A DNA stretch of 17,145 nucleotides from positions 1-17,145 of the IMG/VR virus record IMGVR_UViG_2737471824_000005; one strand, given 5' to 3'. Position numbers and translations under genes: made by a program. The stretch's first letter is position 1, and the number at the start of each line of letters is the position of its first letter. Shown here in pieces: positions 1 to 16,674 of this stretch. This DNA comes from a virus (taxonomy: Duplodnaviria; Heunggongvirae; Uroviricota; Caudoviricetes). The notes under the pieces are model-generated. The model did no database searches. It was not told the origin of the DNA and saw nothing but the letters and a program-made list of their open reading frames with translations.

Positions 1-573
1 ATGTTTTGCGAAGAAAAAGTAGCTCAAATGGCTGCATACCTACTTCTTAAGCGAGGTGGGCGCATGGCATATCTGAAATTGATGAAGCTGCTCTATCTGT
101 CTAACCGCAAGTCGATTTTGAAGCATGGCAGGATGATCGGCGAAGATAGCCTTTACTCTATGAAATTTGGTCCAGTCATGTCGAATACGCTGAACTTGAT
201 TCGTGGTAAGGCTGAAGGTATTGGTGACTACTGGTACAACCTGATAGAGACGAACGGGCATGATGTGTTGTTGCGTTCAGATCCGAGGGAAATGGATGCA
301 GACGAGGTCTTTGATGAGTTGAGCCGTGCAGATATCCGGATTTTAGATGAAATCTATTCTCTGTATGGGCATATGAACCGATTTGATCTCGCAAACATGA
401 CGCATTTAGAAAGCGTTTGTCCAGAGTGGCACAATCCTGGCAATTCTCGTAAGCCTATAGACCTGAAAGAAATGCTGATCAGTGAGGGTAAAAGCGAGGA
501 TGAGGCTAATCGTATAATTGGCAAAATGGAAGAATCTCAGAAACTTAAGGAATTTTCTTTGCAATTATCATGA
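1..573 (+). CDS. Panacea/DUF4065-like protein (SocA/PanA-type putative antitoxin); may be N-terminally cut by window edge
   Basis: ORF starts at base 1; N-terminal signature 'AAYLLLKRGGRMAYLKLMKLLYLSNRKS' resembles the conserved helix pattern of DUF4065/Panacea proteins; stop overlaps next start (ATGA at 570-573). Confidence 0.5.
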   Translation: MFCEEKVAQMAAYLLLKRGGRMAYLKLMKLLYLSNRKSILKHGRMIGEDSLYSMKFGPVMSNTLNLIRGKAEGIGDYWYNLIETNGHDVLLRSDPREMDADEVFDELSRADIRILDEIYSLYGHMNRFDLANMTHLESVCPEWHNPGNSRKPIDLKEMLISEGKSEDEANRIIGKMEESQKLKEFSLQLS

Positions 574-989
574 CGGATTATCAGCCATACAGGAAAGGAA
601 CTGTGCTTGCCCCAACTGGGCCATGCAATCATCTTCATGTGATTTGTAATGATCCTGTTTATTACCCCGTTAACGATTGTTATTGTGTTTTAGTTGTTAA
701 TATTTCTAGTATCAAGGATGGTGTCCCCCACGATCCGTCTTGCGTCTTGAATTCTGGTGATCATCGCTTTATCAAGCATCCAAGTTATGTTGTTTACGCT
801 GAAGCTATAATTTGGCGAGTGGATAACATGGTTAGAAAGCAGCGATCGGGTGAGATTTCCGTTCATGATGATATGCCAGAAGCTACATTCAATAGAATTC
901 TGGACGGTTTTGATATATCTGATGAAGTTACGCCAAAGAACCTTAAATTTAAAAATAAATATTGCGTATCATCTATTGATGATGAGTAA
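570..989 (+). CDS. hypothetical 139-aa protein, translationally coupled partner of the Panacea-like gene (candidate toxin)
   Basis: ATG at 570 overlaps upstream stop (ATGA); no domain recognised by eye. Confidence 0.4.
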   Translation: MTDYQPYRKGTVLAPTGPCNHLHVICNDPVYYPVNDCYCVLVVNISSIKDGVPHDPSCVLNSGDHRFIKHPSYVVYAEAIIWRVDNMVRKQRSGEISVHDDMPEATFNRILDGFDISDEVTPKNLKFKNKYCVSSIDDE

Positions 990-1221: not shown

Positions 1222-1250
1222 AAAACCCGCCTTTAGGCGGGTTTTTTCTT
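1222..1250. terminator. putative bidirectional rho-independent terminator between convergent genes
   Basis: AAAACCCGCC-ttta-GGCGGGTTTT hairpin (1223-1246) followed by T-run on + strand; lies directly after the PrtN-like stop on the - strand. Confidence 0.6.
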
Positions 1251-1531
1251 TAGTGATGTTCTTTGCCCTTCTGTTTGCCTGTTCTGACCTGTTCCCACTC
1301 GATACGTCCTTCTTCTCGTCTTTTGTCTATGTATTCCGCAAGATCCTGAATATTGATGCAACGTTTTGCTTTTTGTGATGCACCGATGCGATATGTAGGT
1401 ACAGGCAACTTACAAGCGTTTGCTTTTGCTTCTGCTGTGGCTGGACTCATACCAAAGTATTTTTGACTAACTGCTGAGAGTTCAATGTTTGGGGTATTGA
1501 ATTCAGCCATCAGTAAAAACAAGGTATTCAT
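1250..1531 (-). CDS. PrtN-like (pyocin-activator family) small DNA-binding phage regulator
   Basis: 93 aa; segment 'YFGMSPATAEAKANACKLPVPTYRIGASQKAKRCINIQDLAEYID' matches the PrtN/excisionase-like HTH family pattern as I recall it; GGAG 8 nt upstream of ATG. Confidence 0.55.
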   Translation of the reverse strand: MNTLFLLMAEFNTPNIELSAVSQKYFGMSPATAEAKANACKLPVPTYRIGASQKAKRCINIQDLAEYIDKRREEGRIEWEQVRTGKQKGKEHH

Positions 1532-2538: not shown

Positions 2539-3363
2539 TCAGGCGGTGAAAGTACCAATAAAGGTTTCTACTTTGCTGTCTTTGAATTTCTCAACAAGCA
2601 GATCACGAAATTCGTTAGCCATTTCTTCCTGTACCGCTTCCAGCTGAATAATGCGCAGAACCAGTACAGGACGATCGCCAGTGATAATGCTGAGGCGTAA
2701 TTTAAACGGACGTTCTTTCAGACCTTCAAACGGAACGCATTTAAATTCAAATGCCACTGGCATAATGTCTTTGGTCTTCGCTTCGACAGACTCCATCAGG
2801 GAGCGTTTGCCGCTGAAGTCATTATCTTCAAAATCAGCGGTCTGGTTCGCTTCAATTGTGATTTTACGGATCGCCGCAGCCGCTTTGGTTGCCTGAATGG
2901 CGTCACCATTAGCATCAAAGCCCACAAGGTAGTCGGCCCAGTCTTCAATCCATTCTGCCAGTGACTTCTGGGAGTTACGCTCGCCATTAACAGACAACAG
3001 AGCAGAGAACGGAGCTGTCTTTTTCAGTTTGAGAGTGGCGGTGTTATCTGCGTGACCTGGTTCATCAATAGTACCCAGGTTAAGAACACTGACGGCACGC
3101 ATATTATCAGCATCGATAAAGCAGCGGGTGCCTTCATCTGCAAGATCTTTAGAATAACGAGTAAAGTCATCGATGCTGGCAGTGGAAAGCGCACCACGGA
3201 AACGGAAACGATTTAAATTTAATTTTTCCAGATCATGAATGCGGAAATTCTCAGGCAATGCCACAGCATCGGCACCAATCTTACTGATAATTTCATTAAC
3301 ACCCTGAGCAGAAATAAGGGCATGGATTTGATTAATTGCGGTTGCGTCTAAGTTCTGAGACAT
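2539..3363 (-). CDS. YfdQ-like prophage protein (DUF2303 family), 274 aa
   Basis: ATG at 3363 with GAGGA upstream; length and position downstream of a 120-aa gene match the yfdP-yfdQ pair of enterobacterial prophages; assignment from memory of family length and context, not an alignment. Confidence 0.55.
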
Positions 3364-3428: not shown

Positions 3429-3791
3429 TTAATGACCTGCTGCGCGGAGTTTTCCGTCAGGTTCACCGGCAAGAGTCAGTAATTGTCCCTGGTCTTCCTG
3501 CAGAATAGTCAGGCGACCACCGCGATTGACATACATCGGCGTTTCGGTGGTGTCTTCTTCGGAAATTTTCCCGCGGTTAGTCGGGCGAACATATGAGAGT
3601 TTGTGTTTGATTTTCACACGGTTCTCATCAAATGGTTCGATTTCCAGGTTGAGTGAGACCTTACCTTTGGTTTTCGTATTCATCACACCGGAAGCGACTT
3701 CACTGAGAACTGCGCCGATTTTGGTTTCAAATACGCCGCCGTCCAGCTCCCCAATAAATGCCTGCACATCAGTACTGCGTTCGCTAGCCAT
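3429..3791 (-). CDS. YfdP-like prophage protein, 120 aa
   Basis: Track ORF extends to 3977, but ATG at 3791 is preceded by AGGAG 8 nt upstream; product 'MASERSTDVQAFIGELDGG...' is 120 aa. Confidence 0.5.
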   Translation of the reverse strand: MASERSTDVQAFIGELDGGVFETKIGAVLSEVASGVMNTKTKGKVSLNLEIEPFDENRVKIKHKLSYVRPTNRGKISEEDTTETPMYVNRGGRLTILQEDQGQLLTLAGEPDGKLRAAGH

Positions 3792-4406
3792 TTTGCTGCT
3801 CCTAATCATATCGACCCTGCAAGGTCGGTTGGTTTCTCCACAAAACAGAGAAGAACACCTGCGGTGGCAGCCGCCCGGATGGATTTGGTTATGAGCCCGT
3901 CGTCCGGTGATGCTCTTCTCTGTTTTGTAAAAAGAGCGGTACCAGCCGGAAGCAAGTGTACAAACTGGTACCGCCAAAGCAGTGGCTGTTGTGGTGACCG
4001 GTGCTGATCTCCGGCTTGCGGTTATTTCAGACTCTCACGGGCGTTTAATTGCCCCGCCGAACAGCTCTTTTCCGCATTAGCTGCAATGTCTTTCGCGCAT
4101 CAGCCTGCGCATTCACCACAACGCTGAGAGCACTTAGCCAGTTACGGCACCACACTTTGTCGCGGTTCCATAAATGTCCTCATCGTTGCACCCTGGTCTC
4201 TTCCCAGGCGTCAAACCGAATCGCCACGCTGGTTAGGCGTCTTATCAGCATCATCATTGACTTGCACATTCCGGCTACCTGGTTTGTTTGCCCGAGCAAG
4301 GAGTGGATTGTCCCCTTTAACGTCCCCAGACCGCTAACGACGCATGTGCCATACGCCGTGTTACAACCAAATTTTGTTTAATCTTGCCTGTGCTGTGTTT
4401 CTTTTA

Positions 4407-4439
4407 GATACATTATGTATCCCAAAGGTACATTGTCAA
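4407..4439 (-). promoter_or_regulatory. putative leftward sigma70 promoter (pL-like) overlapped by a perfect 15-bp palindrome operator
   Basis: On - strand: TTGACA (4434-4439), 16-nt spacer, CATAAT (4412-4417); palindrome GATACATtATGTATC at 4407-4421. Confidence 0.45.
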
Positions 4440-4442
4440 GTA

Positions 4443-4466
4443 TAAAAAAACCTGCCGAAGCAGGTT
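4443..4466 (-). terminator. rho-independent terminator after the repressor gene
   Basis: AACCTGC-cgaa-GCAGGTT hairpin followed on the - strand by a run of 7 U; sits 12 nt past the cI stop. Confidence 0.6.
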
Positions 4467-4477
4467 ATAAATATTGA

Positions 4478-5152
4478 TTAGGCCTTTATTATGTATCTTC
4501 TTGGTTTTCCTGAGAAAATCACTGTACCAATTATAGAGCAATTACCGTTAATCTTAATGTAAGGCTCAGGCCAGTTTGGGTTTAATGCTTTGAGATAACG
4601 CTGTGTTCCATCTTCTATCAACCGCTTGAAGGTGGTTTCGCCTGTATCGTGCATCAATGCAATAACGTCGTCACCGTGGCAGGCAGGGACTTCAGGATCA
4701 ACAAAAATCATGTCTCCCGGGCGGTACTCATCAATCATTGAATCACCAATCACCCGCAAGATATAAGTCATTTCGCCACAGGGTACAGGGCAGGGATAAG
4801 TTTCTGCTGTGCTCAAATCAACCTCAGAATAGCCAACTTCTTTCCATGCTCCGGCCTGTACCCATGATATGACAGGGACTAACGTTATTTGTTTGTTAGT
4901 GATTGAAACGTCAGGTTTTTTTGTGATGTTCGTTGTCTGGTGTTCTTGATCAAGCCATCCGACAGGCAGGTCGAAACATTTTTCGATGTGCCGTGCCATG
5001 CTGTCACCGATATTTTTAGTTGCACCATCTCCCATAAACCTGCTGGTCTGGGTTGGCTCGCGATCAATCATGGTGGCAAAGGAAGAATTCCCGCCAACAC
5101 CATCTCTCAGTTTTCTGGCGTTAGACCGCCGGATGTCATGGACTGTTTTCAT
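4478..5152 (-). CDS. cI: CI-type prophage repressor (N-terminal HTH, C-terminal S24 LexA-like autopeptidase)
   Basis: 224 aa; S24 motifs 'VIGDSM' (Ser) and 'FKRL' (Lys); divergent to a Cro-like gene; start 18 nt from an operator palindrome. Confidence 0.8.
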   Translation of the reverse strand: MKTVHDIRRSNARKLRDGVGGNSSFATMIDREPTQTSRFMGDGATKNIGDSMARHIEKCFDLPVGWLDQEHQTTNITKKPDVSITNKQITLVPVISWVQAGAWKEVGYSEVDLSTAETYPCPVPCGEMTYILRVIGDSMIDEYRPGDMIFVDPEVPACHGDDVIALMHDTGETTFKRLIEDGTQRYLKALNPNWPEPYIKINGNCSIIGTVIFSGKPRRYIIKA

Positions 5153-5242: not shown

Positions 5243-5443
5243 ATGAAAGCGTATTGGGACTCTTTAACCAAAGAACAGCAGGGTGAGTTGGCCGGAAAAG
5301 TTGGCTCAACACCAGGCTACTTACGGCTGGTTTTCAATGGTTATAAAAAAGCCAGTTTTGTGCTGGCTAAAAAACTTGAGCAATGCACGTCAGGTGCAAT
5401 TACGAAATCTGACTTAAGACCGGATATCTATCCGAAAGATTAA
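5243..5443 (+). CDS. cro: Cro-like small HTH regulator (66 aa)
   Basis: Real start is the internal ATG 5243 with GGAGG 10 nt upstream; product 'MKAYWDSLTKEQQGELAGKVGSTPGYLRLVFNGYKKASF...'; divergent to cI. Confidence 0.6.
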   Translation: MKAYWDSLTKEQQGELAGKVGSTPGYLRLVFNGYKKASFVLAKKLEQCTSGAITKSDLRPDIYPKD

Positions 5444-5474: not shown

Positions 5475-6038
5475 ATGAGGCTAACCGTGGGTAAGCATCA
5501 CTGGAAAGTAGAAAAACAGCCTGAGTGGTACGTGAAAGCTGTCAGAAAAACTATCGCGGCGTTGCCGGGGGGTTACGCTGAAGCTGCTGAGTGGCTGGAT
5601 GTAACAGAGAACGCTTTATTCAACCGCCTTCGTGCAGATGGCGATCAGATTTTCCCGCTGGGATGGGCAATGATTTTACAGCGCGCGGCTGGCACTCACT
5701 ACATTGCGGATGCTGTCGCACAGTCTGCTGGTGGGGTGTTTGTATCGCTTCCTGAAATTGAGGAAGTAGAGAACGCCGATATAAACCAGCGCCTGCTGGA
5801 AGTCATCGAACAGATCGGGAGTTACTCAAAGCAGATTCGTTCGGCAATCGAAGATGGGGTAGTGGAGCCACACGAGCAGACAGCAATTAATGATGAGTTG
5901 TATCTGTCAATTTCGAAGCTCCAGGAGCATGCAGCACTGGTCTACAAAATCTTTTGCGCTCCAGAAAAGAGTGACGCCCGCGAGTGTGCAGCTCCGGGCG
6001 TCGTGGCGTTTTGTGTCTGTGGAGAAACTAACGCATGA
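5475..6038 (+). CDS. CII-like / phage regulatory protein (family uncertain)
   Basis: Positioned immediately after cro; alternative GTG start at 5487 has GAGG upstream; stop overlaps next start (ATGA). Confidence 0.4.
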   Translation: MRLTVGKHHWKVEKQPEWYVKAVRKTIAALPGGYAEAAEWLDVTENALFNRLRADGDQIFPLGWAMILQRAAGTHYIADAVAQSAGGVFVSLPEIEEVENADINQRLLEVIEQIGSYSKQIRSAIEDGVVEPHEQTAINDELYLSISKLQEHAALVYKIFCAPEKSDARECAAPGVVAFCVCGETNA

Positions 6039-6871
6039 ACAGTTTAACGGCAAATAACCGTTTGTCGCAACAGCTGGTGGTCAGCGTCGCTGAACACCTG
6101 TTGTTACGGCATGAATGCAGATTACCAAATCACCTGGCTGTAAGTAACCACAGAGAACTTTACCTGACTGTGGGGGGCGAGTTGTGCAGGAACTTAACCG
6201 CTGGTTTCGTGACGGAAGAGGACTTTATGTTCATGTTATTCGTTAGGAGCCAGAAACACAGCGCGTTATCTATCTTCGCAAAGACTACCCGCATGAGTGC
6301 TTTAGTCCTTTGTGGAAATTCAGGCGTGATTTTGTTGAGTGTGAAGGACCACCAGCACATTGATTCTGCCATTCCGGGACGTTACACTGTTCAGGCACCT
6401 TATAAAGCGGGTGCCGGGATTGGCGTCCTGGAATTGATCAAGGCGATATATGACGCGCCAGCGTCTTTTTTATCGTCCGCATTTGCTCACATCAAAGTTA
6501 TGGTGGGCTGGGCGGGGGCATCGAAAGATGCGCCGGTTTCCTTGATCACCGGTTACGCCAACCCCGTTCAGTTCACCACCAGCGAAATTGGCGTTTCCGG
6601 TGGTGGAAGTATTTCACCGATCAAGGAGGCTGCCATCATGGCTACTGTCCCAGCCCTCACTCGTCTGAATGATGAAGACTTACATAAACTCAGTTATGTA
6701 ACAACTGCACTACGTGCTCTGCGCAAGGTAACTCTTTCGGATCCGCAGGCACATCAGGTTCTGGTAGAAACCCTTCTTAACTTGCAAGCTGAACGTATTC
6801 GTCTGGCGGATAAGGCTAATTTTCATATTCACCGTCTCCTGAATATCAGCGGAGGGCATCGTCATGCTTAA
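6035..6871 (+). CDS. hypothetical 278-aa protein; C-terminal part may derive from a tape-measure gene
   Basis: GGAG 9 nt upstream of ATG; coupled to flanking ORFs; segment 'LLNLQAERIRLADKAN' resembles my recollection of an internal lambda H segment (unverified). Confidence 0.4.
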   Translation: MNSLTANNRLSQQLVVSVAEHLLLRHECRLPNHLAVSNHRELYLTVGGELCRNLTAGFVTEEDFMFMLFVRSQKHSALSIFAKTTRMSALVLCGNSGVILLSVKDHQHIDSAIPGRYTVQAPYKAGAGIGVLELIKAIYDAPASFLSSAFAHIKVMVGWAGASKDAPVSLITGYANPVQFTTSEIGVSGGGSISPIKEAAIMATVPALTRLNDEDLHKLSYVTTALRALRKVTLSDPQAHQVLVETLLNLQAERIRLADKANFHIHRLLNISGGHRHA

Positions 6872-7100: not shown

Positions 7101-7327
7101 GTATGGAGCTGATGGTTAAAGCGATGAAAATTCGAGTGGGTATTGGTGGTTCAGGTATGGCGATGTTTGCCCCGCAGTACAACATCGAGATCAATAACGA
7201 TGGCACGAACGGGCAGATAGGTCCGGCTGCCCTGAAGGTGGTTTATGACCTTGGGAAAAAAGCGGCAGCGGACTTTATGCAACAGCAGGCCCGTGATGGT
7301 GGTCGGTTAAGTGGAGCATATCGGTAA
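7028..7327 (+). pseudogene. H: 3' remnant of tail tape measure gene H
   Basis: Frame opens after a stop at 7025-7027; 'INNDGTNGQIGPAALKVVYD...DGGRLSGAYR' matches the lambda H C-terminus as I recall it; an internal ATG at 7097 has a GGAGG SD; stop overlaps the M start (TAATG). Confidence 0.6.
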
Positions 7328-7656
7328 TGGAGACGTTTCACTGGAAAGTGCGCCCGGATATGAATGTGGTATCAGAGCCGAAAGTGGTGACAGTGAAGCT
7401 GGGCGATGGTTATGAACAGCGTCGTGCGGCGGGACTGAATAACCAGTTGTCGATTTACAGCGTGACGATACGTGTTCGTAAATGTGAACACCCATCTTTA
7501 AAAGCCTTTCTGGAACGGCACGGTGGCGTCCGCGCATTTCAGTGGACGCCACCTTATGACTGGAAGCCGATCAGGGTGGTTTGTCGTAAATGGTCGGCAA
7601 GCGTGGGGGCGCTGTGGGTAACCATAACGGCAGATTTTGAACAGGTCGTGGCATAG
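7327..7656 (+). CDS. M: minor tail protein M
   Basis: 109 aa, same length and clear similarity to lambda gpM (e.g. 'GDGYEQR', 'HGGVRAFQWTPPYDWKPIRVVCRKWSA'); conserved lambda gene order. Confidence 0.9.
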   Translation: METFHWKVRPDMNVVSEPKVVTVKLGDGYEQRRAAGLNNQLSIYSVTIRVRKCEHPSLKAFLERHGGVRAFQWTPPYDWKPIRVVCRKWSASVGALWVTITADFEQVVA

Positions 7657-7665
7657 GAGGCTCTG

Positions 7666-8364
7666 ATGCAGGATATTCCACAGGAAACACATCATGAGAC
7701 GACACGCCTCACTCAGTCAGCCCAGGTGGTGCTCTGGGAAATCGATCTGACAGTGGTCGGTGGAGAACGTTATTTTTTCTGTAATGAGCAGAACGAAAAA
7801 GGTGAGCCGGTCACCTGGCAGGGGCGACAGTATCAGGCGTATCCCATTCAGGGGACGGGATTTGAACTGAACGGCAAGGGCAGTGCTGCCCGTCCGACAC
7901 TGACGGTTTCTAACCTGCACGGCATGGTCACCGGGATGGCGGAAGACCTGCAGAGTCTGGTCGGAGGAACGGTGGTCCGGCGTAAGGTTTACGCCCGCTT
8001 TCTGGATGCGGTGAACTTCGTCAACGGAAACAGCGAAGCCGATCCGGAGCAGGAGGTGATCAGCCGCTGGCGCATCGAGCAGTGCAGCGAACTGAGCGCG
8101 GTGAGTGCCTCTTTTGTACTGTCCACGCCGACGGAAACGGACGGTGCCGTTTTTCCGGGACGTATCATGCTGGCCAACACCTGCACCTGGACCTATCGCG
8201 GTGATGAGTGCGGTTATCACGGTCCGGCGGTCGCGGATGAATATGATCAGCCGACGTCCGATATCACGAAGGATAAATGCAGCAAATGCCTGAGTGGCTG
8301 TAAGTTTCGCAATAATGTCGGCAACTTTGGCAGCTTCCTTTCCATTAACAAACTTTCGCAGTAA
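7666..8364 (+). CDS. L: minor tail protein L
   Basis: 232 aa; near-identical over long stretches to lambda gpL as recalled; AGGAGG SD. Confidence 0.9.
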   Translation: MQDIPQETHHETTRLTQSAQVVLWEIDLTVVGGERYFFCNEQNEKGEPVTWQGRQYQAYPIQGTGFELNGKGSAARPTLTVSNLHGMVTGMAEDLQSLVGGTVVRRKVYARFLDAVNFVNGNSEADPEQEVISRWRIEQCSELSAVSASFVLSTPTETDGAVFPGRIMLANTCTWTYRGDECGYHGPAVADEYDQPTSDITKDKCSKCLSGCKFRNNVGNFGSFLSINKLSQ

Positions 8365-8369
8365 ATCCC

Positions 8370-9113
8370 ATGACACAGACAGAATCAGCGATTCTGGCGC
8401 ACGCCCGGCGATGTGCGCCAGCGGAGTCGTGCGGCTTCGTGGTGAGAACGCCGGAGGGGGAAAGATATTTTCCCTGCGTGAATATCTCCGGTGAGCCGGA
8501 GGATTATTTCCGGATGGCTCCGGAGGACTGGCTGCAGACAGAAATGCAGGGTGAGATTGTGGCGCTGGTCCACAGCCACCCCGGTGGTCTGCCCTGGCTG
8601 AGTGAGGCCGACCGGCGGCTGCAGGTGCAGAGTGATTTGCCGTGGTGGCTGGTTTGCCGGGGGGCGATTCACAAGTTCCGCTGTGTGCCACATCTTTCCG
8701 GGCGGCGCTTTGAGCACGGGGTGACGGACTGTTACACGCTGTTCCGGGATGCTTACCATCTGGCGGGGATTGAGATGCCGGATTTTCATCGCGAGGATGA
8801 CTGGTGGCGTAACGGTCAGAATCTCTATCTGGATAATCTGGAGGCCACAGGGCTGTATCAGGTGCCGTTGTCAGCGGCGCAGCCGGGCGATGTGCTGCTG
8901 TGCTGTTTTGGTTCATCGGTGCCGAATCATGCCGCCATTTACTGTGGTGACAGCGAGCTGCTGCACCATATTCCTGAACAACTGAGCAAACGAGAGAGGT
9001 ACACCGACAAATGGCAGCGACGCACACACTCCCTCTGGCGTCACCGGGCATGGCACGCATCTGCCTTTACGGGGATTTACAACGATTTGGCCGCCGCATC
9101 GACCTTCGAGTGA
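8370..9113 (+). CDS. K: tail assembly protein K (JAB/MPN + NlpC/P60 domains)
   Basis: 247-aa ORF; JAMM motif 'HSHPGGLPWLSEAD'; Cys/His of NlpC/P60 ('DCYTLF', 'HAAIY'); the classically annotated 199-aa lambda K would start at internal ATG 8514. Confidence 0.85.
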   Translation: MTQTESAILAHARRCAPAESCGFVVRTPEGERYFPCVNISGEPEDYFRMAPEDWLQTEMQGEIVALVHSHPGGLPWLSEADRRLQVQSDLPWWLVCRGAIHKFRCVPHLSGRRFEHGVTDCYTLFRDAYHLAGIEMPDFHREDDWWRNGQNLYLDNLEATGLYQVPLSAAQPGDVLLCCFGSSVPNHAAIYCGDSELLHHIPEQLSKRERYTDKWQRRTHSLWRHRAWHASAFTGIYNDLAAASTFE

Positions 9114-9658
9114 AAACGGGGTCCGAAGCCATCCGGGCGCTGGCCATGCAGAACCCGGCGTTTCGTCAGAAACTGAGCGACGGCTGGTACCAGGTACGCA
9201 TTGCCGGGCGTGATGCAGGTGAAACCGAATTGTCTGCCCGTCTTAATGAGCCGCTGGCAAATGGTGCCGTGATCCACATCGTGCCGCGTCTGGCGGGAGC
9301 TAAAAGTGGAGGTGTGTTTCAGGTGGTGCTGGGGGCGGCGCTGATTGCGGTGGCATGGTGGAACCCTGTGGGCTGGCTGGGTGCCGCGGCTGTATCGGGC
9401 ATGTATGCGGCAGGGGCCAGTATGATCCTGGGCGGAGTGGCGCAGATGCTGGCACCGAAAGCCAGGACGCCCACGGCAGCAAGTACAGATAACGGCAAAC
9501 AGAACACCTATTTCTCCTCACTGGATAACATGGTTGCCCAGGGCAATGTTCTGCCGGTTCTGTACGGTGAAATGCGCGTGGGGTCTCGCGTGGTTTCTCA
9601 GGAGATCAGCACGGCAGACGAAGGGGACGGTGGTCAGGTTGTGGTGATTGGTCGCTGA
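9011..9658 (+). CDS. I: tail assembly protein I
   Basis: 215 aa, strong similarity to lambda gpI at both termini; overlaps K by 103 nt, which I recall is also true in lambda. Confidence 0.85.
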   Translation: MAATHTLPLASPGMARICLYGDLQRFGRRIDLRVKTGSEAIRALAMQNPAFRQKLSDGWYQVRIAGRDAGETELSARLNEPLANGAVIHIVPRLAGAKSGGVFQVVLGAALIAVAWWNPVGWLGAAAVSGMYAAGASMILGGVAQMLAPKARTPTAASTDNGKQNTYFSSLDNMVAQGNVLPVLYGEMRVGSRVVSQEISTADEGDGGQVVVIGR

Positions 9659-9676
9659 TGCAAAATGTTTTATGTG

Positions 9677-9696
9677 AAACCGCCTGCGGGCGGTTT
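9677..9696 (+). other. hairpin between I and J (possible attenuator)
   Basis: AAACCGCC-tgcg-GGCGGTTT 8-bp stem followed by TGTCATTT. Confidence 0.3.
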
Positions 9697-9718
9697 TGTC
9701 ATTTATGGAGCGTGAGGA

Positions 9719-10705
9719 ATGGGTAAAGGCAGCAGTAAGGGGCATACCCCGCGCGAAGCGAAGGACAACCTGAAGTCCACGCAGCTGCTGAGTGTGATCG
9801 ATGCCATCAGCGAAGGGCCGGTTGAAGGTCCGGTGGATGGATTAAAAAGCGTGCTGCTGAACAGTACGCCGGTGCTGGACAGTGATGGGAATACCAACAT
9901 CGCCGGTGTCACGGTGGTGTTCCGGGCCGGTGAGCAGGAGCAGACTCCGCCGGAGGGATTTGAATCCTCCGGCTCCGAGACGGTGTTGGGTACGGAAGTG
10001 AAATACGACACGCCGATCACCCGCGCCATCACGTCGGCAAACATCGACCGACTGCGCTTTACCTTCGGCGTGCAGGCACTGGTGGAAACCACCTCAAAGG
10101 GTGACAGGAATCCGTCGGAAGTCCGTCTGCTGGTTCAGATACAACGTAACGGTGGCTGGGTGACGGAAAAAGACATCACCATTAAGGGCAAAACCACCTC
10201 GCAGTATCTGGCCTCGGTGGTGGTGGGTAGCCTGCCGCCGCGCCCGTTTAATATCCGGATGCGCAGGATGACGCCGGACAGCACCACAGACCAGCTGCAG
10301 AACAAAACGCTCTGGTCGTCATACACCGAAATCATCGATGTGAAACAGTGCTACCCGAACACGGCACTGGTCGGCGTGCAGGTGGACTCGGAGCAGTTCG
10401 GCAGCCAGCAGGTGAGCCGTAATTATCATCTTCGCGGGCGCATTCTGCAGGTGCCGTCGAACTATAACCCGCAGACGCGGCAATACAGCGGTATCTGGGA
10501 CGGAACGTTTAAGCCGGCATACAGCAACAACCCGGCCTGGTGTCTGTGGGATATGCTGACCCACAGCAACACGTCTCTGGCGTGGGGAGCTGGCGTGCAG
10601 TTTAACCCGACCGAATCCGTGGCCATTGATATTGCTTATGAAGGCTCCGGCAGTGGCGACTGGCGCACTGACGGTTTCATCGTGGGTGTCGGTTATAAGT
10701 TCTGA
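9719..10705 (+). CDS. J: truncated tip attachment protein J (first ~283 aa) fused in-frame to the last ~45 codons of lom
   Basis: N-terminus matches lambda gpJ ('MGKGSSKGHTPREAKDNLKSTQLLSVIDAISEGP...') up to '...WCLWDMLTH'; then continues as Lom-like C-terminus 'AWGAGVQFNPTESVAIDIAYEGSGSGDWRTDGFIVGVGYKF'. Confidence 0.8.
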   Translation: MGKGSSKGHTPREAKDNLKSTQLLSVIDAISEGPVEGPVDGLKSVLLNSTPVLDSDGNTNIAGVTVVFRAGEQEQTPPEGFESSGSETVLGTEVKYDTPITRAITSANIDRLRFTFGVQALVETTSKGDRNPSEVRLLVQIQRNGGWVTEKDITIKGKTTSQYLASVVVGSLPPRPFNIRMRRMTPDSTTDQLQNKTLWSSYTEIIDVKQCYPNTALVGVQVDSEQFGSQQVSRNYHLRGRILQVPSNYNPQTRQYSGIWDGTFKPAYSNNPAWCLWDMLTHSNTSLAWGAGVQFNPTESVAIDIAYEGSGSGDWRTDGFIVGVGYKF

Positions 10706-10731
10706 TTAGCCAGGTAACACAGTGTTATGAC

Positions 10732-10759
10732 AGCCCGCCTGTTCAGGCGGGCTTTTTTG
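10732..10759 (+). terminator. rho-independent terminator after the J-lom fusion
   Basis: AGCCCGCCTG / CAGGCGGGCT stem followed by TTTTTT. Confidence 0.7.
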
Positions 10760-10769
10760 TGGGGTGAAT

Positions 10770-13700
10770 ATGGCAGTAAAGATTTCAGGTGTACTGAAAG
10801 ACGGCACAGGAAAACCGGTACAGAACTGCACAATCCAGCTGAAAGCAAAACGTAACAGCACCGCGGTGGTGGTGAACACGCTGGCCTCAGAAAATCCGGA
10901 TGAAGCCGGGCGTTACAGCATGGACGTTGAGTACGGTCAGTACAGCGTTATTCTGTTGGTGGAAGGCTTCCCGCCATCGCATGCCGGGACCATCACCGTG
11001 TATGAAGACTCACAACCGGGTACGCTGAATGATTTTCTCGGTGCCATGACGGAGGATGATGCCCGTCCGGAGGCACTGCGCCGTTTTGAGCTGATGGTGG
11101 AAGAAGTGGCGCGTAACGCGTCCGCGGTGGCACAGAACACGGCAGAGGCTGCTATTTCTGCCTCTCAGGCCGAAGAGTTCGCGAGCAATGCTTCTGAATA
11201 TGCGCTGAATAAGTTCACGTTCTATAAAACGCCGAGCGATCCGGACGGTACAATTGCAGGCCTTGCTGCTACTACCAGCGGGCAGTCTTTCCGTGTAGCG
11301 GAAGGCCCGGGAGCAACAGCGGCATTCAAAACCTACGAGAACCAGGATGGCGTGGCTATACTACAGGCTTCTCAGCCAGGCACAGCTGCTATAACAGGGA
11401 CAATCCGCGAATTTCCCACGCTGGAGGCGGCACAGGCTGATGCAGACGCTGGCAATATTCTTTCTGGTTCAAAATGCTGGGTAACCAGTGCTATAAATAC
11501 CTCGCTGGCTGACGAGTATGTAAATACATCCGGGGTTATGACTGCAACCGGGAGAACAATTATTTCCCAGTACAGCCTATCTTCGTCTATATCAAGAGAA
11601 GCAACCAGAAGAAAAAATGGTGATTATCAGGATTTGATTGAATTCAAATCTCTTGATGATACAGCACTACCATTACCGGAAAATTCAGTATTAGAATTTT
11701 TGTCTCTGGCAACCACTACGGATGTAAACACAAACTTCTATCGCCTTGTTTTTTCTTCGCTGGGTTCTGAGGTTGCGTCACTGGTTTTTCCTGGGACGAA
11801 CACCCAGTATTCTGATGGTAAATTCTGGTCAGCGTATCGCCTGTTCCGATTTCAGGATTTGAAGTATGTTTCCATTCTGGAAACGACCAGTAGTGTAGTT
11901 CGGGTTCGCTATGACCTGCCGGCTGGGTTTGGTGTTCCGGTAGCAGGCTCAAACTATATTGCACTTGATATTACAGGCAAGTTTTATCCGGCGCAGGCAG
12001 GCTCAGTTAACTCCGTCACAAGGAAGTCAATATCCGGGACAGCAATTGCCAACGCCATTCAGTTCGTGGTTACCATCGCTGAACTTACGGCTGCTGGTTA
12101 TACGGCGTCGACCGTTGTTGATTACATCAACTCAATAGCGCCAGATTGCCTCTTTGCGGCATATGCGGCATATGATACGACGATTGCCCAGACAGGGTTT
12201 GAAGATTTTTTCAGGATTCAGTTACCTGCTGGTGATTATACCGTTAGCCGTGATGGCTTTGCGCCTTCAGGACTGGCAGTGTTACCTGCCGGTGCGTATT
12301 CGGTATGGCGTAAAAAGCCTGTAAGGCAGGTATTTGTTGGAAACTTCCTGAGAAATGTTGCTGATGTTAAAAATCTGCTGTCGGCAGAATATAAAAACTA
12401 TCCCGTTGAGCTTAAGGTGTCGTTTGGTCCCGGCGAAGTGCCAGACTCCGATGCGCTGAAGGTGATGGACGCTGACGGCAACGTGTTTGACTGCCAGTTT
12501 GCGGATAACGTTTATCCCAATCCACGCCTGAAATCGAACACCGGATACCATGCCGACGGCTCCCTGGCATCAGGGTCTGTGTTCATCACCGATACCCTGG
12601 CATCAGGACAGCAGAAATATTACGAACTCAGGGCATACAATCGTCGCCGCCAGGACCTGGCCTCAGAGTCCTTCCCGCAGCTCGTGAGGGTGGCTGACGG
12701 GTTCACCGTTACCGTGGGCGGGTATGTGTATTTTTTCCAGCGCCAGAACAGCCTGGGGCTGACCAGTATCACCGACCCGGCAGGACAGACGCACAGTTTT
12801 GCGCATTCCTGTTACTGTACCGGGATTGTCTCCGGCGGATCCTCAAGTAACCAGATGGTGCTCGGTGCATCACTGCGCATGGTTAATACCGGGCCGGTCT
12901 TTACTGAGCTGGAGCTGACCGTCAGAAACCGGACCATCGGAACACTGGCTGAAGGGGCGTTACAGTCCACAGTACGCTACCGGATTTTCAAAAATGGCAA
13001 GGTGCTTATCCGGGTCATGACCACGGCTACGCAAGATATTCCGGCTGGAGTATTATTTGGTGCATATTCCCGTCTGAACCTGAATGATGGTGCATATACC
13101 TTTGATGCCGCTAGAGCACTGACGTACTGGACGGATTCAGTCACCGGCAAGCGATTTACGGCCACGACGGTCTTTGCTAATGGGGATATCCACCGAGATG
13201 GCCCTGCTTATGGGCCAACGCGCCCGATACGGGCAACGGCGCTGCAACCCACAGGCACAACAACTCGGCTGGACGCGGGATGGCTTTTCGTTGACCTGAA
13301 TGACGATTCATTCCTGAACTGGCCTGTGCCAAAAAACTGGACGTGGACACATGAGACATGGATTGACTGCGACAACACCATCACCAGTTCCACCTCAGAG
13401 GTTAATGCACTGCTGGTAAGTCAGGCTAACAACCGCCCGGTAGGGTTCATGGGTGATTGCAGTTATGCAGGTGTTCTGCGGCTGGACATGCTGGAGAAAA
13501 TCGCCTGTCACGTCAGGGGATCCGTTGAGTGGTGGAAAAGCACTGACGCTACTGTTTATGGTGGCGGACCCGATGTGAAAACGCAGTTCTATTGCCACAT
13601 GGCAGAGATTTTTCTGTTAGAAAAGTATGGCATCAGCACGCTGAACACAGTGTATACGAATTTTAAATCGTACATGAGGGGATTTGGCGGCATAACTAAT

Positions 13701-14504
13701 CCAGGTATTATGTTCACTGATGGATGGTGGGGGTTGCAGTTCCAGTCGCGTCTGAGTATTCCGTGCTATGAGTGGCTCTACAAAATGGCGGTGAAGGCCG
13801 GAGATACAGCCAAACAAACCGAGCTGAAGGCGGGGATTAAATCCCTCGCGGATGCCGTCATGGTGTCATATAACACCTATGGTGGCGTGGCTCTGGTGGG
13901 GACAGCCACAAACTCAGGAAACAGCAACTCTAACGCGACAGCCATGCGCGTGCTGGCGCTGGCGATTTATATGGGGCTGGATACCGGCGGGACGTACCTT
14001 GCTGCATTCAATGCGCTGGAGACCTTCATCACGAACTCAGCGACATTCATGAAAGCGGAAAACATTATTCTCGATGGCCCGTCGGATTCCACGCTGAAGA
14101 GCATGTACCTGCCGTACATGGTTTACGCCACTAATAACTACCTGCTGGCCTGCAAGCTGCTTAACCGGACACCAAAGTTTGACCTGGTGAATTTTATCCT
14201 GACAGCGTCAAACAGCGCGGGAGGATTCAGTGAGGTGGATTACTGCATCTCTGAAAGCCGACGTGGTGGCGCGAACACCATCGCGTTTGCGTTACTGCCG
14301 CTGTTTCAGTCCGCCAGGCCGTCAGCAATGATTGCCGCAAAATCGCTGTTCGGAATTTTTGAGACGCAGTACGGGCCGAAACCGGGACTACCAAAGCGCT
14401 TCTTTGATTTTGACGGCAGCAGTGCGGCTGGCAGCACGATGTATGACCCGTGCTTTGTGGCGTCAACGCTTGCCGACCTTTGGCTGTCATATGGCTACAA
14501 TTAA
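10770..14504 (+). CDS. stf: side tail fibre protein, chimeric: lambda Stf-like N-terminal ~150 aa plus ~1,100-aa non-Stf distal region
   Basis: ATG at 10770 (track starts at GTG 10764); N-terminus matches lambda/Rac Stf; the Ala/Ser-rich shaft and Gly/His-rich distal repeats of lambda Stf are absent. Confidence 0.8.
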
Positions 14505-14774: not shown

Positions 14775-16145
14775 CTATGATATCCCTGAAATGTCCTCTT
14801 CAAGCTCTTTTACTGATTTCGCAATTTTAAATTTAAATTTTCTCTCTATTTCACTATTGCTAAGTTTTTTTTCATTCTCTTTCCCTATCCACATAGAAAC
14901 AATTTCTCGTTTCTGAGATATATGTAGATTGTCAAAGTTAGGTATGTATTTAAAAGTCTCCGCTCTACCCCTGCGGAGTTCATAGAAAGTTTTAATCAAA
15001 GACTTTGGTTTTATTTCTGATGAAAGGCCGAATCGGCGGATAAGATTATTGATCGTATGATTAACAGCTCGAAGTTGAGCTGTTGACGTTATTTGTGAGA
15101 AGTACGATACCCATCCCAATCGTTTACCTTCAAACACACATCCCGTAATTCTAAGATTTAGTTTCCACTGACAATATGCAACAGCTCGTTCTTTATCGCG
15201 CTTATTTTTAGCTTGTAGTAGAGCGTGTCTATATGCAGTAAAAATTTTTGCTAAGGATGACTCAAATCTAAGAATGCTCTCATGTTTTATCAATAATTCT
15301 CGATTTTTTATGTGGTAGCCCAAAAAGTTGAAACTTTCATCCAAGCTGCCTACTTTGGATTTTGAGTTCTCTTCATTTAATGGATGTGGGTTTAAATTTA
15401 ATGATTGAAGCTTATCAATGATATGAGAAGCTATTTTTGTTGCTTGATATTTTGGTGTTAAAATAAGAATGTCATCAACGTATCGCATGTACCATATGTC
15501 ATGCATTTTATTGATTTCATCATCGAAATTAGATAGTGATATTTCAGCTAAAATGTTTGATATCGCTAATCCCTGAGGTACTCCTCTGGTATTATTAGGG
15601 ATACCTTTGCTTCCTGTGGTTCCACTTACAGTAGGCACGATTAATGATGATGTTATTAACTGTCTAATTTCTTTTTTTCTAATTTTATTTTTTATTGCAT
15701 TAATTATCAATTTATGTTCAATTGAAGGATAGAAACTTTTAAGATCTATTTTTGCATATTCAGCATATAGACTGTTGTTTAATGCTTCTTTCAATGAGTC
15801 AATTACTGTATGTGGTAGTTTTAATCTGGACTTAGGATATATTTCCGTAAGGCATTCACAGAGAGCTCTAAGAGTAATTCTGTCCCTAGCAGTTGGTATG
15901 GAAATCTGTCTGGGTGTAGAGTTAGCGCCTTTAGATATTAATTTTTCTTTATATGCTGTAAATTTGTAATTGCCAGAATTAACCTTTTCAAAAATGAAAG
16001 TGATCTCATTTTTTATTGTCAAATCAAGTTTTGATGGGCGAATCCGATCTATGCCAATCGCTCCTGATTCTTTGATTTTTTCAGAGTATACTTTTAGAAG
16101 ATTTTTTTTCGAGAATGACTTTTTAAAAATTCTGCTTGCAGTCAT
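14775..16145 (-). CDS. reverse transcriptase, retron-like or UG/Abi (DRT) type
   Basis: RT motifs: 'IGIDRIRPS', 'IDLKSFYPSI' (motif A), 'RGVPQGLAISNILAEISL' (motif B), 'YVDD' at 15471-15482 (motif C), 'FLGY', and thumb-like 'RITG' at 15141-15152; track start 16151 is TTG, first ATG is 16145; overlaps the upstream membrane gene; AT-rich. Confidence 0.9.
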   Translation of the reverse strand: MTASRIFKKSFSKKNLLKVYSEKIKESGAIGIDRIRPSKLDLTIKNEITFIFEKVNSGNYKFTAYKEKLISKGANSTPRQISIPTARDRITLRALCECLTEIYPKSRLKLPHTVIDSLKEALNNSLYAEYAKIDLKSFYPSIEHKLIINAIKNKIRKKEIRQLITSSLIVPTVSGTTGSKGIPNNTRGVPQGLAISNILAEISLSNFDDEINKMHDIWYMRYVDDILILTPKYQATKIASHIIDKLQSLNLNPHPLNEENSKSKVGSLDESFNFLGYHIKNRELLIKHESILRFESSLAKIFTAYRHALLQAKNKRDKERAVAYCQWKLNLRITGCVFEGKRLGWVSYFSQITSTAQLRAVNHTINNLIRRFGLSSEIKPKSLIKTFYELRRGRAETFKYIPNFDNLHISQKREIVSMWIGKENEKKLSNSEIERKFKFKIAKSVKELEEDISGIS

Positions 16146-16674
16146 AGTCAATCCAAAGATATATTAATGGGAGTATATAAAGTGCGGCAGTAATAAATAT
16201 TCGAAGTAATATCCATAAAATAACAATTATTTTTTCTTTTTGTGTGGGGATCCTCGTCTTAAGTCCAACTTGAGTTACCCTTGAAATTTTATCATCTATG
16301 TCACGGTGATTCTCAACCTCATTGAGCAAATTAAAATATTTTTCTTTCTGTTCAAGAGATAACTGTTGACTGGTGGTAATGTCAAAATAGAGTCGCTGTA
16401 GTGCAATATAATTCCTTCTCATGGCTATTGCTCGACCACGAAAATCTAGGTTAGATACGATCAGAGAAATACCCAGTAGAGCCACTGAAAGTATCGCCGC
16501 AACGACATCTGTATTATCTCCTAGAACCTTTGGAAATCGCAACGTTACAATTGAAAGTACCGCACTCAATATAGCATACCAAACGAGGATAAATTGAGAG
16601 TGTTTTTCAAGCCATTCTAGTCGATGGTGCGCTTGGATACGTGCTTTATATGTAAACCAAATATTGTCATGCAT
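16123..16674 (-). CDS. 3-TM membrane protein, candidate effector of the RT system
   Basis: 183 aa; hydrophobic helices 'FILVWYAILSAVLSIVTL', 'VVAAILSVALLGISLIVS' and 'IIVILWILLRIFITAALYILPLIYLWI'; AAGGA SD; 3' end overlaps the RT start by 23 nt. Confidence 0.65.
   Translation of the reverse strand: MHDNIWFTYKARIQAHHRLEWLEKHSQFILVWYAILSAVLSIVTLRFPKVLGDNTDVVAAILSVALLGISLIVSNLDFRGRAIAMRRNYIALQRLYFDITTSQQLSLEQKEKYFNLLNEVENHRDIDDKISRVTQVGLKTRIPTQKEKIIVILWILLRIFITAALYILPLIYLWIDYDCKQNF

Follow-up and report, generated by a model that had tools for sequence, protein, structure and literature searches.

Genetic setting of the leader

The window, by which we mean the whole 17,145-nucleotide stretch of DNA that was analysed, covers the immunity region of an E. 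coli prophage, a defective lambdoid element of the SfV/mEp460 type. The replication, lysis, and head genes are gone, and tail genes follow directly from about position 7327; because the prophage is defective, the elements described below may be idle here. The region of interest is framed by the following features.

2539-3363: yfdQ/DUF2303, to the left of the leader
3429-3791, minus strand: yfdP (PHROG phrog_204; yfdP is the RefSeq name)
3791-3789, minus strand: ATG of yfdP
3803-3799, minus strand: Shine-Dalgarno sequence AGGAG
4439..4412, minus strand: pL-like sigma-70 promoter, TTGACA-16-CATAAT, 11/12 matches in a promoter scan
4478-5152, minus strand: cI-type repressor gene (Peptidase_S24)

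The repressor gene faces a Cro/YdaS-like gene (5243-5443) and a CII-like gene, and the pL-like promoter adjoins the terminator of the cI-like gene on its downstream side. The promoter match is strong, in agreement with the first-pass annotation, which had placed a pL-like promoter upstream of a structured leader; transcription should start near position 4405, as predicted from this promoter. The same annotation saw no credible minus-strand ORF between the promoter and the yfdP start at 3791, and closer inspection bears this out. Within 3792-4405 the only minus-strand frames are 24-49 aa long, begin with TTG or GTG throughout, and each lie over conserved RNA helices, and no Shine-Dalgarno sequence was seen before any of them. 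RefSeq has zero annotated features between cI and yfdP. An N-like arginine-rich protein at the head of the pL operon is absent, and the leader ORFs match no PHROG family of known function. PHROG families of "unknown function" cover ORF calls on both strands of one leader hairpin (M5, below), a pattern that looks like that of spurious ORFs on conserved non-coding DNA. A protein-coding leader was considered and rejected: orf33, in the equivalent leader of SfV, is not arginine-rich, and the window leader has no credible ORF.

The leader as a whole folds with z = -3.6. It is 99% identical in the viable phage mEp460, which keeps its elements in the same order, and that order recurs at 88-97% identity in Stx2-converting phages and in cdtI. 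Complete E. coli genomes that carry 80% or more of the leader number 800. Conservation of most of the leader in unrelated phages is invisible from the sequence alone.

A mosaic of five elements

The leader consists of five separate elements (module A, hairpin H, motif B, an intrinsic terminator, and hairpin M5) rather than one hairpin. They are listed in order of transcription, together with a small hairpin that lies before yfdP.

4374-4192, minus strand: module A, a ~183-nt conserved RNA, homologue of the phage P1 trnI-ban spacer
4189-4119, minus strand: hairpin H, a stem of GCAACGAUGAGGACA with GUGCUCUCAGCGUUG around a variable insert, read from the sequences
4122-3988, minus strand: motif B, a tRNA-shaped four-way junction with kissing loops
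3975-3929, minus strand: intrinsic terminator tL0, a 13-bp stem of the GGCGGUACCAGCC type, then UCUUUUU
3928-3840, minus strand: hairpin M5, a ~21-bp lower stem closing a three-way junction
3827-3812, minus strand: small hairpin CGACCU-UGCA-GGGUCG, between M5 and the ribosome-binding site

BLAST comparison with phages, plasmids, and E. coli genomes gives different parts of the leader different relatives.

3780-3977: common to SfV and SfIV
3828-3934: common to Salmonella phage ST64B
3987-4135: common to P1-like plasmids (98%) and one phage P1 record (95%)
4195-4372: common to phage P1 (about 80%)
4089-4135, ~42-nt core: about 90% identity to Klebsiella Ackermannviridae phages (Magnus), Swiduovirus swi2, other ~47-kb siphophages, and Erwinia, Edwardsiella, and Cronobacter phages

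Both pieces homologous to phage P1 sit in its C1-controlled ban operon, the order of which is Pban/Op72, a dicF-like region, tRNA-Asn, tRNA-Thr, tciABC, tRNA-Ile, the homologue of 4195-4372, and ban. The yfdP-proximal half follows another group of phages. SfV, ST64B, phiNP, Eeyore, and the window have in common the order hairpin H; motif B or a variant of it; ~20 nt; a hairpin followed by CCUUUUUACA; M5; GGAGAAAC; a small hairpin; and the Shine-Dalgarno sequence and yfdP. The variant of motif B in these relatives' leaders reads GUGAAUGCGGCUCAGCGCACGCGG...CACCGGGAGGCACCCGGCACCACAAC; phiNP has a more divergent junction at this position, which was left unclassified.

This partition changes how the leader should be described. 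The first-pass annotation took it for a single structured N-less leader encoding a cis-regulatory or small RNA. The non-coding character stands, as does a structure under selection, with compensatory changes in several helices. The hairpin on which that description centred is the last of the five elements, downstream of a conserved terminator, and module A and motif B are not specific to N-less leaders, being common to the phage P1 ban operon, PR' late leaders, and the tRNA clusters of virulent phages. Two perfect 10-bp inverted repeats can be added to the one already recognised: 3936-3945 with 3965-3974, which is the terminator stem, and 3988-3997 with 4113-4122, which is the closing helix of motif B.

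Module A and hairpin H

Alignment of module A with phage P1 and P1-like plasmids reveals long invariant blocks. In phage P1 the module lies between tRNA-Ile, whose CCA end it directly follows, and ban; in prophages it begins about 30 nt past pL-type upstream sequences of at least four different kinds. The Stx2 phage TL-2011b belongs to a further group of phages and prophages that have it. In total, 89 distinct copies were collected from IMG/VR and other sources, and module A occurs in 1376 of 5426 complete E. coli genomes (25%), unannotated among the matches listed. RNAalifold predicts 43 pairs, 8 of them with compensatory changes and mostly in terminal hairpins; covariation is small because the sequence hardly varies.

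Hairpin H directly abuts the closing helix of motif B. Its long stem is conserved, and in other phages its insert holds T-arm-like hairpins.

Structure and covariation of motif B

A single copy of motif B lies in the window, where it scores 93 bits (E = 1e-25) with R1, a covariance model built from 54 aligned copies. Its parts are as follows.

4122-4114 with 3996-3988, minus strand: helix P1, the closing helix; then the linker AAU
4110-4095, minus strand: hairpin 1, GCGCA-GGCUGA-UGCGC
4094-4016, minus strand: variable arm
4015-3997, minus strand: hairpin 2, GCCGG-AGAUCAGCA-CCGGU

The GCUGA of loop 1 pairs with the UCAGC of loop 2. When minus strands from unrelated phages are set side by side, they have one layout in common: a variable 5' strand, GAAU, GCGCA-GGCUGA-UGCGC, a variable insert, CCGG-AGAUCAGCA-CCGG, CC, and the complement of the 5' strand. 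Helix P1 ranges from 6 to 20 bp, the middle arm from 26 to 286 nt, and the whole motif from 85 to 230 nt. Few unpaired nucleotides are conserved: AAU and the first G of loop 1, but not the base that follows hairpin 1.

The pairing was assessed in three alignments, with a control in which the 3' partners were slid by 1-3 columns.

A1: 54 distinct sequences; 96.2% of cells paired vs 24-50% slid; compensatory changes in 9/24 pairs, including 8/9 in helix P1
A3: 77 distinct sequences; 95.1% of cells paired vs 29-42% slid; compensatory changes in 14/19 pairs, including 5/5 in hairpin 2
A5: 100 distinct sequences; 95.2% of cells paired vs 24-52% slid; compensatory changes in 14/24 pairs, including 5/5 in hairpin 1

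In each alignment, none of 500 shuffles matched either the covariation score or the paired-cell percentage. The loops change together as well, with GCUGA:UCAGC replaced by GGUGA:UCACC, UGGUG:CACCA, GAUGA:UCAUC, or GCGA:UCGC. When loop 2 is fixed at UCAGC in a 3'-anchored search, loop 1 retains CUGA while the stem of hairpin 1 varies (GCGUA/UACGC, GCACA/UGUGC, GAGCA/UGCUC, GCGAA/UUCGC, GCCCG/CGGGC). All three conserved helices and the loop-loop pairing are thus backed by compensatory changes, and the structure is under selection. Short copies alone fold as a four-way junction by minimum free energy (z = -3.8 and -4.7). The molecule that folds is the RNA of the minus strand, as follows from the G-U pairs on that strand and from neighbouring tRNA genes, which nearly always lie on the same strand as the motif.

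Distribution and neighbours of motif B

The exact 21-nt core of motif B was found at at least 119 loci in IMG/VR, representing at least 109 distinct copies, and the 3' hairpin used as a query gave 100 further loci. In a scan of one genome per species, the core occurs in 69 species, mostly Gamma-, Beta-, and Alphaproteobacteria; matches outside this majority are a Desulfocarbo genome and single MAG contigs of Nitrospira, Acidimicrobiales, and Bacillales. Hosts of prophages with the motif include Pseudomonas, Burkholderia, Pantoea, Serratia, and Aeromonas. The window's own copy is present by megablast in 846 of 5426 complete E. coli genomes (16%), again unannotated among the matches listed. Both module A and motif B are carried by phage P1 and by Stx2-converting and cdt-converting phages.

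The genomic positions of the motif are diverse. In unrelated prophages (L110, L095, L122) it lies on the same strand behind cI-type repressor genes, directly after a pL-type promoter, and in prophages of the L110 type it starts about 10 nt past the promoter. Elsewhere it follows Q antiterminator genes in PR' leaders (L026, L027), lies between terminase and portal genes, or sits beside SSB, the last two settings being assigned by eye from translations. The ban operon of phage P1 has two copies among its tRNA genes, one canonical and one variant, and the motif also occurs in virulent Klebsiella and Escherichia phages and in tRNA clusters of virulent phages. Gene neighbours are too varied to indicate a partner protein.

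There is a physical link to tRNA genes. A tRNA lies within 600 nt of 23 of 126 copies, on the same strand in all but one, and these 23 make up all but one of the 24 loci with any tRNA within 3 kb. At two loci (L071, L104) a tRNA-Pro is nested in the variable arm itself. T-arm-like hairpins lie near 26 of 146 copies, vs 7 and 3 in two controls, and cluster 32-55 nt upstream of the motif, inside hairpin H. Terminators are a further associate: a terminator-like site occurs within 120 nt past the motif in 27 of 119 copies (10, 13, and 5 in controls), and in 22 of the 119 it begins 21-54 nt past the motif, about two to five times the control rates.

The terminator, hairpin M5, and the approach to yfdP

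Motif B ends 12 nt upstream of tL0, which folds with -21.2 kcal/mol (z = -5.4). A generic terminator scan missed this site because its loop exceeds 8 nt. SfV, ST64B, phiNP, and Eeyore have a U-tract at the corresponding place behind stems of unrelated sequence (stems across the set read GGCGGUACCAG.., GUCGGCGUC.., and GCCCAUC..), and such conservation of position and U-tract without conservation of the stem is the signature of a real intrinsic terminator. A possible anti-terminator pairing of 3930-3940 with 4061-4071, joining the terminator tail to the variable arm of motif B, was judged to be chance, since phage P1 has the same arm without that terminator. A boxA-like sequence, GCUCUUUUUA (3938-3929), was likewise rejected: it overlaps the terminator tail and is specific to the window, with SfV, ST64B, phiNP, and Eeyore reading CCUUUUUA instead. 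A conserved boxA of the GCUCUUUA type followed by a boxB hairpin was not found in the leader.

Hairpin M5 contains the 14-bp inverted repeat that the first-pass annotation had singled out, CAAAACAGAGAAGA (3841-3854) with TCTTCTCTGTTTTG (3914-3927). The repeat is indeed present, as the core of a 21-bp stem, and the further hairpins that it was said to enclose are recovered too, the M5 stem closing a three-way junction with two inner hairpins. Only the distance from the hairpin to the Shine-Dalgarno sequence, given as about 50 nt, needs correction, to about 35 nt. The arms of M5 extend to 25 nt (3840-3864 with 3904-3928) at 84% complementarity, and the 93-nt fold, at -46.1 kcal/mol vs -22.6 +/- 2.9 for shuffled sequences (z = -8.2), was equalled in stability by 0 of 200 shuffles. 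The hairpin is conserved in SfV, SfIV, ST64B, phiNP, and Eeyore, with a few compensatory stem changes (read by eye); of the inner hairpins, the first (CGACGGGCUCAUAACCNAAUCCANCCGGG) is kept and the second varies freely. The lower stem has 21 predicted pairs including G-U, as would suit an RNase III-type site, for which a near-perfect duplex of ~20 bp or more in an untranslated leader is expected. The small hairpin downstream is, on its own, no more stable than shuffled sequence (z = -1.0), and relatives carry a different hairpin at this site.

Relation to known RNAs

The first-pass annotation had proposed a covariance-model scan against Rfam. Such a scan with Rfam 15 covered the window and 7 related loci at gathering scores, and 3700-4500 plus a minimal copy of motif B at the looser limit of E <= 10. 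The leader modules matched no family; what came up was tRNAs elsewhere, isrK and C4 at 6395-6583, and noise. A full-text literature search for the core sequences found no paper containing them. Motif B is a new RNA fold, well supported by covariation and absent from Rfam 15. A compilation of 8495 unnamed candidate RNAs from IMG/VR has been published (PMC10690425), and motif B could be among them.

The closest structural parallel is tRNA. Like a tRNA, motif B has a closing helix, 3 nt, a hairpin, 1 nt, a middle arm, a few nt, and a hairpin joined without a linker to the closing helix; its outer loops interact, as the D and T loops of tRNA do, and it is physically linked to tRNA genes. The strand order of the four-way junction and the interaction of the first and last loops together give it a tRNA-like shape. 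The differences are substantial: the elbow is a Watson-Crick helix of 4-5 bp, the closing helix spans 6-20 bp, and there is no CCA end. ARAGORN detects no tRNA anywhere in the window, the leader included, and the Rfam tRNA model detects none in the window copy or in the minimal 86-nt copy. Given the variable length of helix P1 and this silence of tRNA detectors, motif B is not a close tRNA mimic.

Among phage regulatory RNAs, the putL and putR sites of HK022 are comparable in position, being RNAs just past an early promoter, in a lambdoid phage without N, with terminators downstream. The window modules likewise begin ~30 nt after the predicted start and are followed by tL0, and an HK022-like interpretation had been put forward, as speculation, in the first-pass annotation. 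Comparison gives it no support. The best blastn match of the leader to the HK022 nun/PL region has only E = 0.19, and model R1 finds no match there. The folds differ too: put is a pair of tandem stem-loops spanning about 70 nt, and motif B a four-way junction whose loops kiss. Unlike put, copies of motif B are found in virulent phages and at a distance from promoters.

The C4 RNA of P1 and the CI RNA of P4 are excised by RNase P from operon leaders. Like motif B, the RNAs of the P1/P7 C4 and P4 CI type (RF01695, clan CL00128) are structured RNAs in phage operon leaders with an end-to-end closing helix and conserved hairpin loops, but the C4 loops pair with target sites in mRNA, whereas those of motif B pair with each other. 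The C4 model has no match in 3700-4500 (cmscan, E <= 10) and finds a true C4 at 6496-6583 in the window with 82 bits. Phage P1 has both C4 and motif B. The DicF RNA is cut out of the leader of the dicB operon. It offers another example of an RNA gene excised from a leader, and the ban leader of phage P1 has an annotated dicF-like region; the Rfam DicF model does not match the window leader. The leader of lambda N contains an RNase III hairpin. It resembles the window leader as a long untranslated early-left stretch with a long duplex before the first gene, and differs in that the window leader lacks an N gene and a conserved boxA, with no boxB-like hairpin noted.

GOLLD and ROOL are large ornate orphan RNAs of phages and prophages that lie beside or enclose tRNA genes (PMC12286853). 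Motif B is much smaller than these (85-230 nt) and is found in Proteobacteria rather than in Firmicutes and rumen metagenomes; the GOLLD and ROOL models in Rfam do not match the leader modules. The RydB sRNA (RF00118) has one hairpin in common with motif B (CCGGAGAUAAGCGCCGG vs CCGGAGAUCAGCACCGG); in both RNAs it precedes by two bases the 3' closing strand, or, in RydB, what looks by eye like one. The match covers only this 17-nt hairpin, at 17.7 bits against a gathering score of 50, with no hairpin 1 and no loop complementarity, and could be due to chance or to a REP-like sequence. Other candidates were set aside: the svsR/C0293 sRNA (PMC12803456) is a different element, antisense at the cI 3' end; the Pas sRNAs (bioRxiv 10.64898/2026.05.13.724894) are late-region elements; and the mEpimmI phages are different phages, with an N-like Gp17.

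Possible functions of the leader RNAs

The interpretation we tentatively prefer, while holding it somewhat short of probable, is that the leader is an untranslated early-left transcript carrying independent tRNA-like non-coding RNA genes, with a terminator and an RNase III-type hairpin gating yfdP. Module A, hairpin H, and motif B would be independently mobile structured RNAs occupying the niche of phage tRNA genes, a niche that would comprise strongly transcribed, untranslated early and late operon leaders as well as tRNA clusters. Upon induction, pL would transcribe A-H-B, and many of the transcripts would stop at tL0 or be excised by tRNA- and RNA-processing nucleases, giving one or more stable RNAs. 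Our guess is that their target, reached in trans, would be a conserved component of the host with an affinity for tRNA-like shapes. Read-through of tL0 would give transcripts with the 21-bp stem of M5; this putative RNase III-type duplex may fix or protect the 5' end of yfdP mRNA and may also set how well that message is translated. The placement of motif B right after early and late promoters and just before a terminator fits a role in cis equally well.

A more far-reaching proposal, about which we are distinctly doubtful, takes motif B to represent a new class of phage RNAs with the shape of tRNA, of which it would be the first to be recognised and which would be defined by a Watson-Crick kissing elbow and by a middle arm that can be nearly anything, including a real tRNA. 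Early expression of such RNAs would let phages of Proteobacteria engage a universal host factor sensitive to the shape of tRNA, and the N-less leader would be an operon of such RNA genes. As a member of that class, motif B could act as a decoy that draws off processing enzymes or defences aimed at tRNA; another option is that its complementary loops join separate molecules into multimers, by analogy with the phi29 pRNA or ROOL.

The main rival to an operon of independent RNA genes is a cis-acting antiterminator, put-like in action though unrelated to put, in which motif B, possibly with A and H, would stay on its RNA polymerase and carry it through tL0 and later terminators, replacing N. The leader has no N-like ORF, motif B lies immediately before a terminator conserved in position, and it recurs in leaders known for antitermination (several pL immunity types, PR' after Q, and the C1-controlled ban operon), with a spacing of about 10 nt from the promoter in L110-type prophages. 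In addition, mEp460, which has 99% of the leader in common with the window, comes from a phage collection chosen for dependence on Nus. We nevertheless judge this account unlikely, given that HK022 nun/PL is unlike the leader by blastn and covariance model and differs in fold, that the boxA-like GCUCUUUUUA gives way to CCUUUUUA in relatives, and that many copies lie where antitermination makes little sense: at the ends of transcription units before a terminator, in virulent-phage tRNA clusters, and around a nested tRNA.

The remaining explanations are less likely than antitermination in cis. One would have motif B serve as a riboswitch-like aptamer for a small molecule, tRNA, or protein, with tL0 as its expression platform, so that early-left expression tracks a host signal. 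A compact junction, a nearly invariant core, and pseudoknot-like loop pairing are typical aptamer traits, and the enrichment of terminator-like sites shortly past the motif is what such a device would produce. Around three quarters of the copies, however, have no nearby terminator, and the downstream genes are mutually unrelated. No alternative pairing between the 3' strand of helix P1 and the terminator was found by eye, and the sole candidate anti-terminator pairing involves a variable arm that phage P1 has without that terminator; a sensor is quite improbable. Small odds also attach to the idea that the modules mark cuts separating tRNAs from messages, as processing signals or self-cleaving RNAs akin to HDV-like theta ribozymes or tRNA punctuation. 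Motif B does adjoin same-strand tRNAs and T-arm-like hairpins, does lie between cistrons, and has a closing helix that joins its 5' and 3' ends; against this, its conserved unpaired nucleotides are limited to AAU and the opening G of loop 1, no Rfam ribozyme family matches, and its topology is, in our reading, unlike that of HDV, twister, hammerhead, pistol, or hatchet. That the leader is inert recombinational debris from tRNA-cluster DNA, in which at most the terminator and M5 matter, seems equally implausible: the prophage lacks its replication, lysis, and head genes, the leader is a patchwork of pieces with different relatives, and the 98% identity of the variable arm to P1-like plasmids points to recent transfer, but the order of elements is kept in viable mEp460, the Stx2-converting phages, and cdtI, the 800 E. 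coli genomes retain most of the leader, and the motif B family shows strong compensatory evolution.

Implications

Some gene annotations need correction in the light of these structures. The hypothetical ORFs gp36 and gp37 of mEp460, CDS 0036 and 0037 of Ayreon, and possibly plp and upl of phage P1 overlap conserved RNA structure. Phage P1 and mEp460 are easy systems for work on motif B, which is a candidate RNA-only regulator for many lambdoid phages without an N gene. A fold with ties both to phage tRNA genes and to the RNA made first on induction offers a tractable handle on the question of why phages carry tRNA clusters. Should the motif B RNA prove to work as a decoy or as a scaffold for assembly, phage-host conflict would gain a new mechanism.

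Protein calls over the leader and elements around pL

Hypothetical proteins have been annotated over the untranslated pL leader in deposited phage genomes, namely gp36 and gp37 of mEp460 (L002 among the compared loci) and CDS 0036 and 0037 of Ayreon (L001). Of these, gp36, gp37 and Ayreon 0036 are plus-strand calls that run antisense to the pL transcript, and Ayreon 0037 is a minus-strand call. The window intervals concerned are:

3864-4007, plus strand: leader interval under protein calls
4049-4381, plus strand: leader interval under protein calls

PHROGs additionally contains families for ORF calls on either strand of M5, the long hairpin preceding yfdP. The leader protein calls, PHROGs families included, are probably spurious and reflect conserved DNA that encodes RNA.

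In SfV (L231), a further conserved element, GCGAACAGGCAGGACGCCCACGAAGUAGCCGCC...GAUGAUUCGC, directly follows pL on the minus strand (~2470-2540), its ends mutually complementary. The element recurs at equivalent places on the minus strand in ST64B (L229), phiNP (L230) and Eeyore (L232). The window retains only ACAGGCAAGA of it, and module A, the conserved leader RNA, stands in its place. On the plus strand, positions 4403-4476 give weak Rfam matches to STnc370, STnc50 and STnc130 (E = 0.3-2.7), running antisense to the cI 3' end and the pL promoter; the 4449-4466 hairpin corresponds to the cI terminator on the other strand. The e14 C0293 and NC-SV svsR sRNAs have been described at the equivalent position (PMC12803456).

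Motif B in P1 and a possible chromosomal relative

The P1 ban operon (L009, AF234172) contains two copies, one canonical and one variant, of motif B, the tRNA-shaped four-way junction of the leader:

L009 3816-3921 (record ~69815-69920), plus strand: motif B copy
L009 4077-4204 (record ~70076-70203), plus strand: motif B copy

Because both copies overlap the annotated genes plp and upl on the opposite strand, these predicted genes may be miscalls. In E. coli K-12, the following sRNA gene contains CCGGAGAUAAGCGCCGG:

L402 6714-6781, minus strand: rydB, encoding RydB

In the window's motif B, hairpin 2 is identical to this segment at 15/17 positions, and the common CAGCGCC variant is identical to it at 16/17; RydB also has a GCUAAG string resembling loop 1 of the motif B variant. 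The likeness could be a chance match or REP-like, or it could mark RydB as a decayed relative on the chromosome.

RNA immunity module, prophage decay and genes at the window ends

Two Rfam matches at gathering level lie in tandem within an ORF called at 6035-6871 (Ash family):

6395-6471, plus strand: isrK (64 bits)
6496-6583, plus strand: C4 antisense RNA (82 bits)

In this lambdoid prophage, the pair forms a module of P1 immI/Gifsy-1-like type, for RNA immunity or anti-Q, within the rightward operon. The prophage is defective; it carries no replication, lysis or head genes, and tail genes directly follow the early region:

7327-14504, plus strand: tail genes, comprising minor tail protein, L, K (JAB/NlpC), I, J-Ail/Lom fusion and tail fibre
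9719-10705, plus strand: fusion of a truncated J with an Ail/Lom C-terminus
within 7327-14504, plus strand: tail fibre (1246 aa)

Towards the window ends lie:

1-573, plus strand: Panacea/SocA-domain protein
within 1-989, plus strand: 139-aa ORF with no family match, after and overlapping the Panacea/SocA gene
1250-1531, minus strand: PrtN pyocin-activator homologue
14775-16151, minus strand: reverse transcriptase, matching PADLOC RT_UG17 (E = 1e-158)
16123-16674, minus strand: SLATT_5/RT-associated SLATT two-transmembrane effector, overlapping the reverse transcriptase gene

The Panacea/SocA protein and the 139-aa ORF could be a toxin-antitoxin pair, and the RT_UG17 reverse transcriptase and SLATT effector, located at the prophage end, are an anti-phage defence pair of DRT type.
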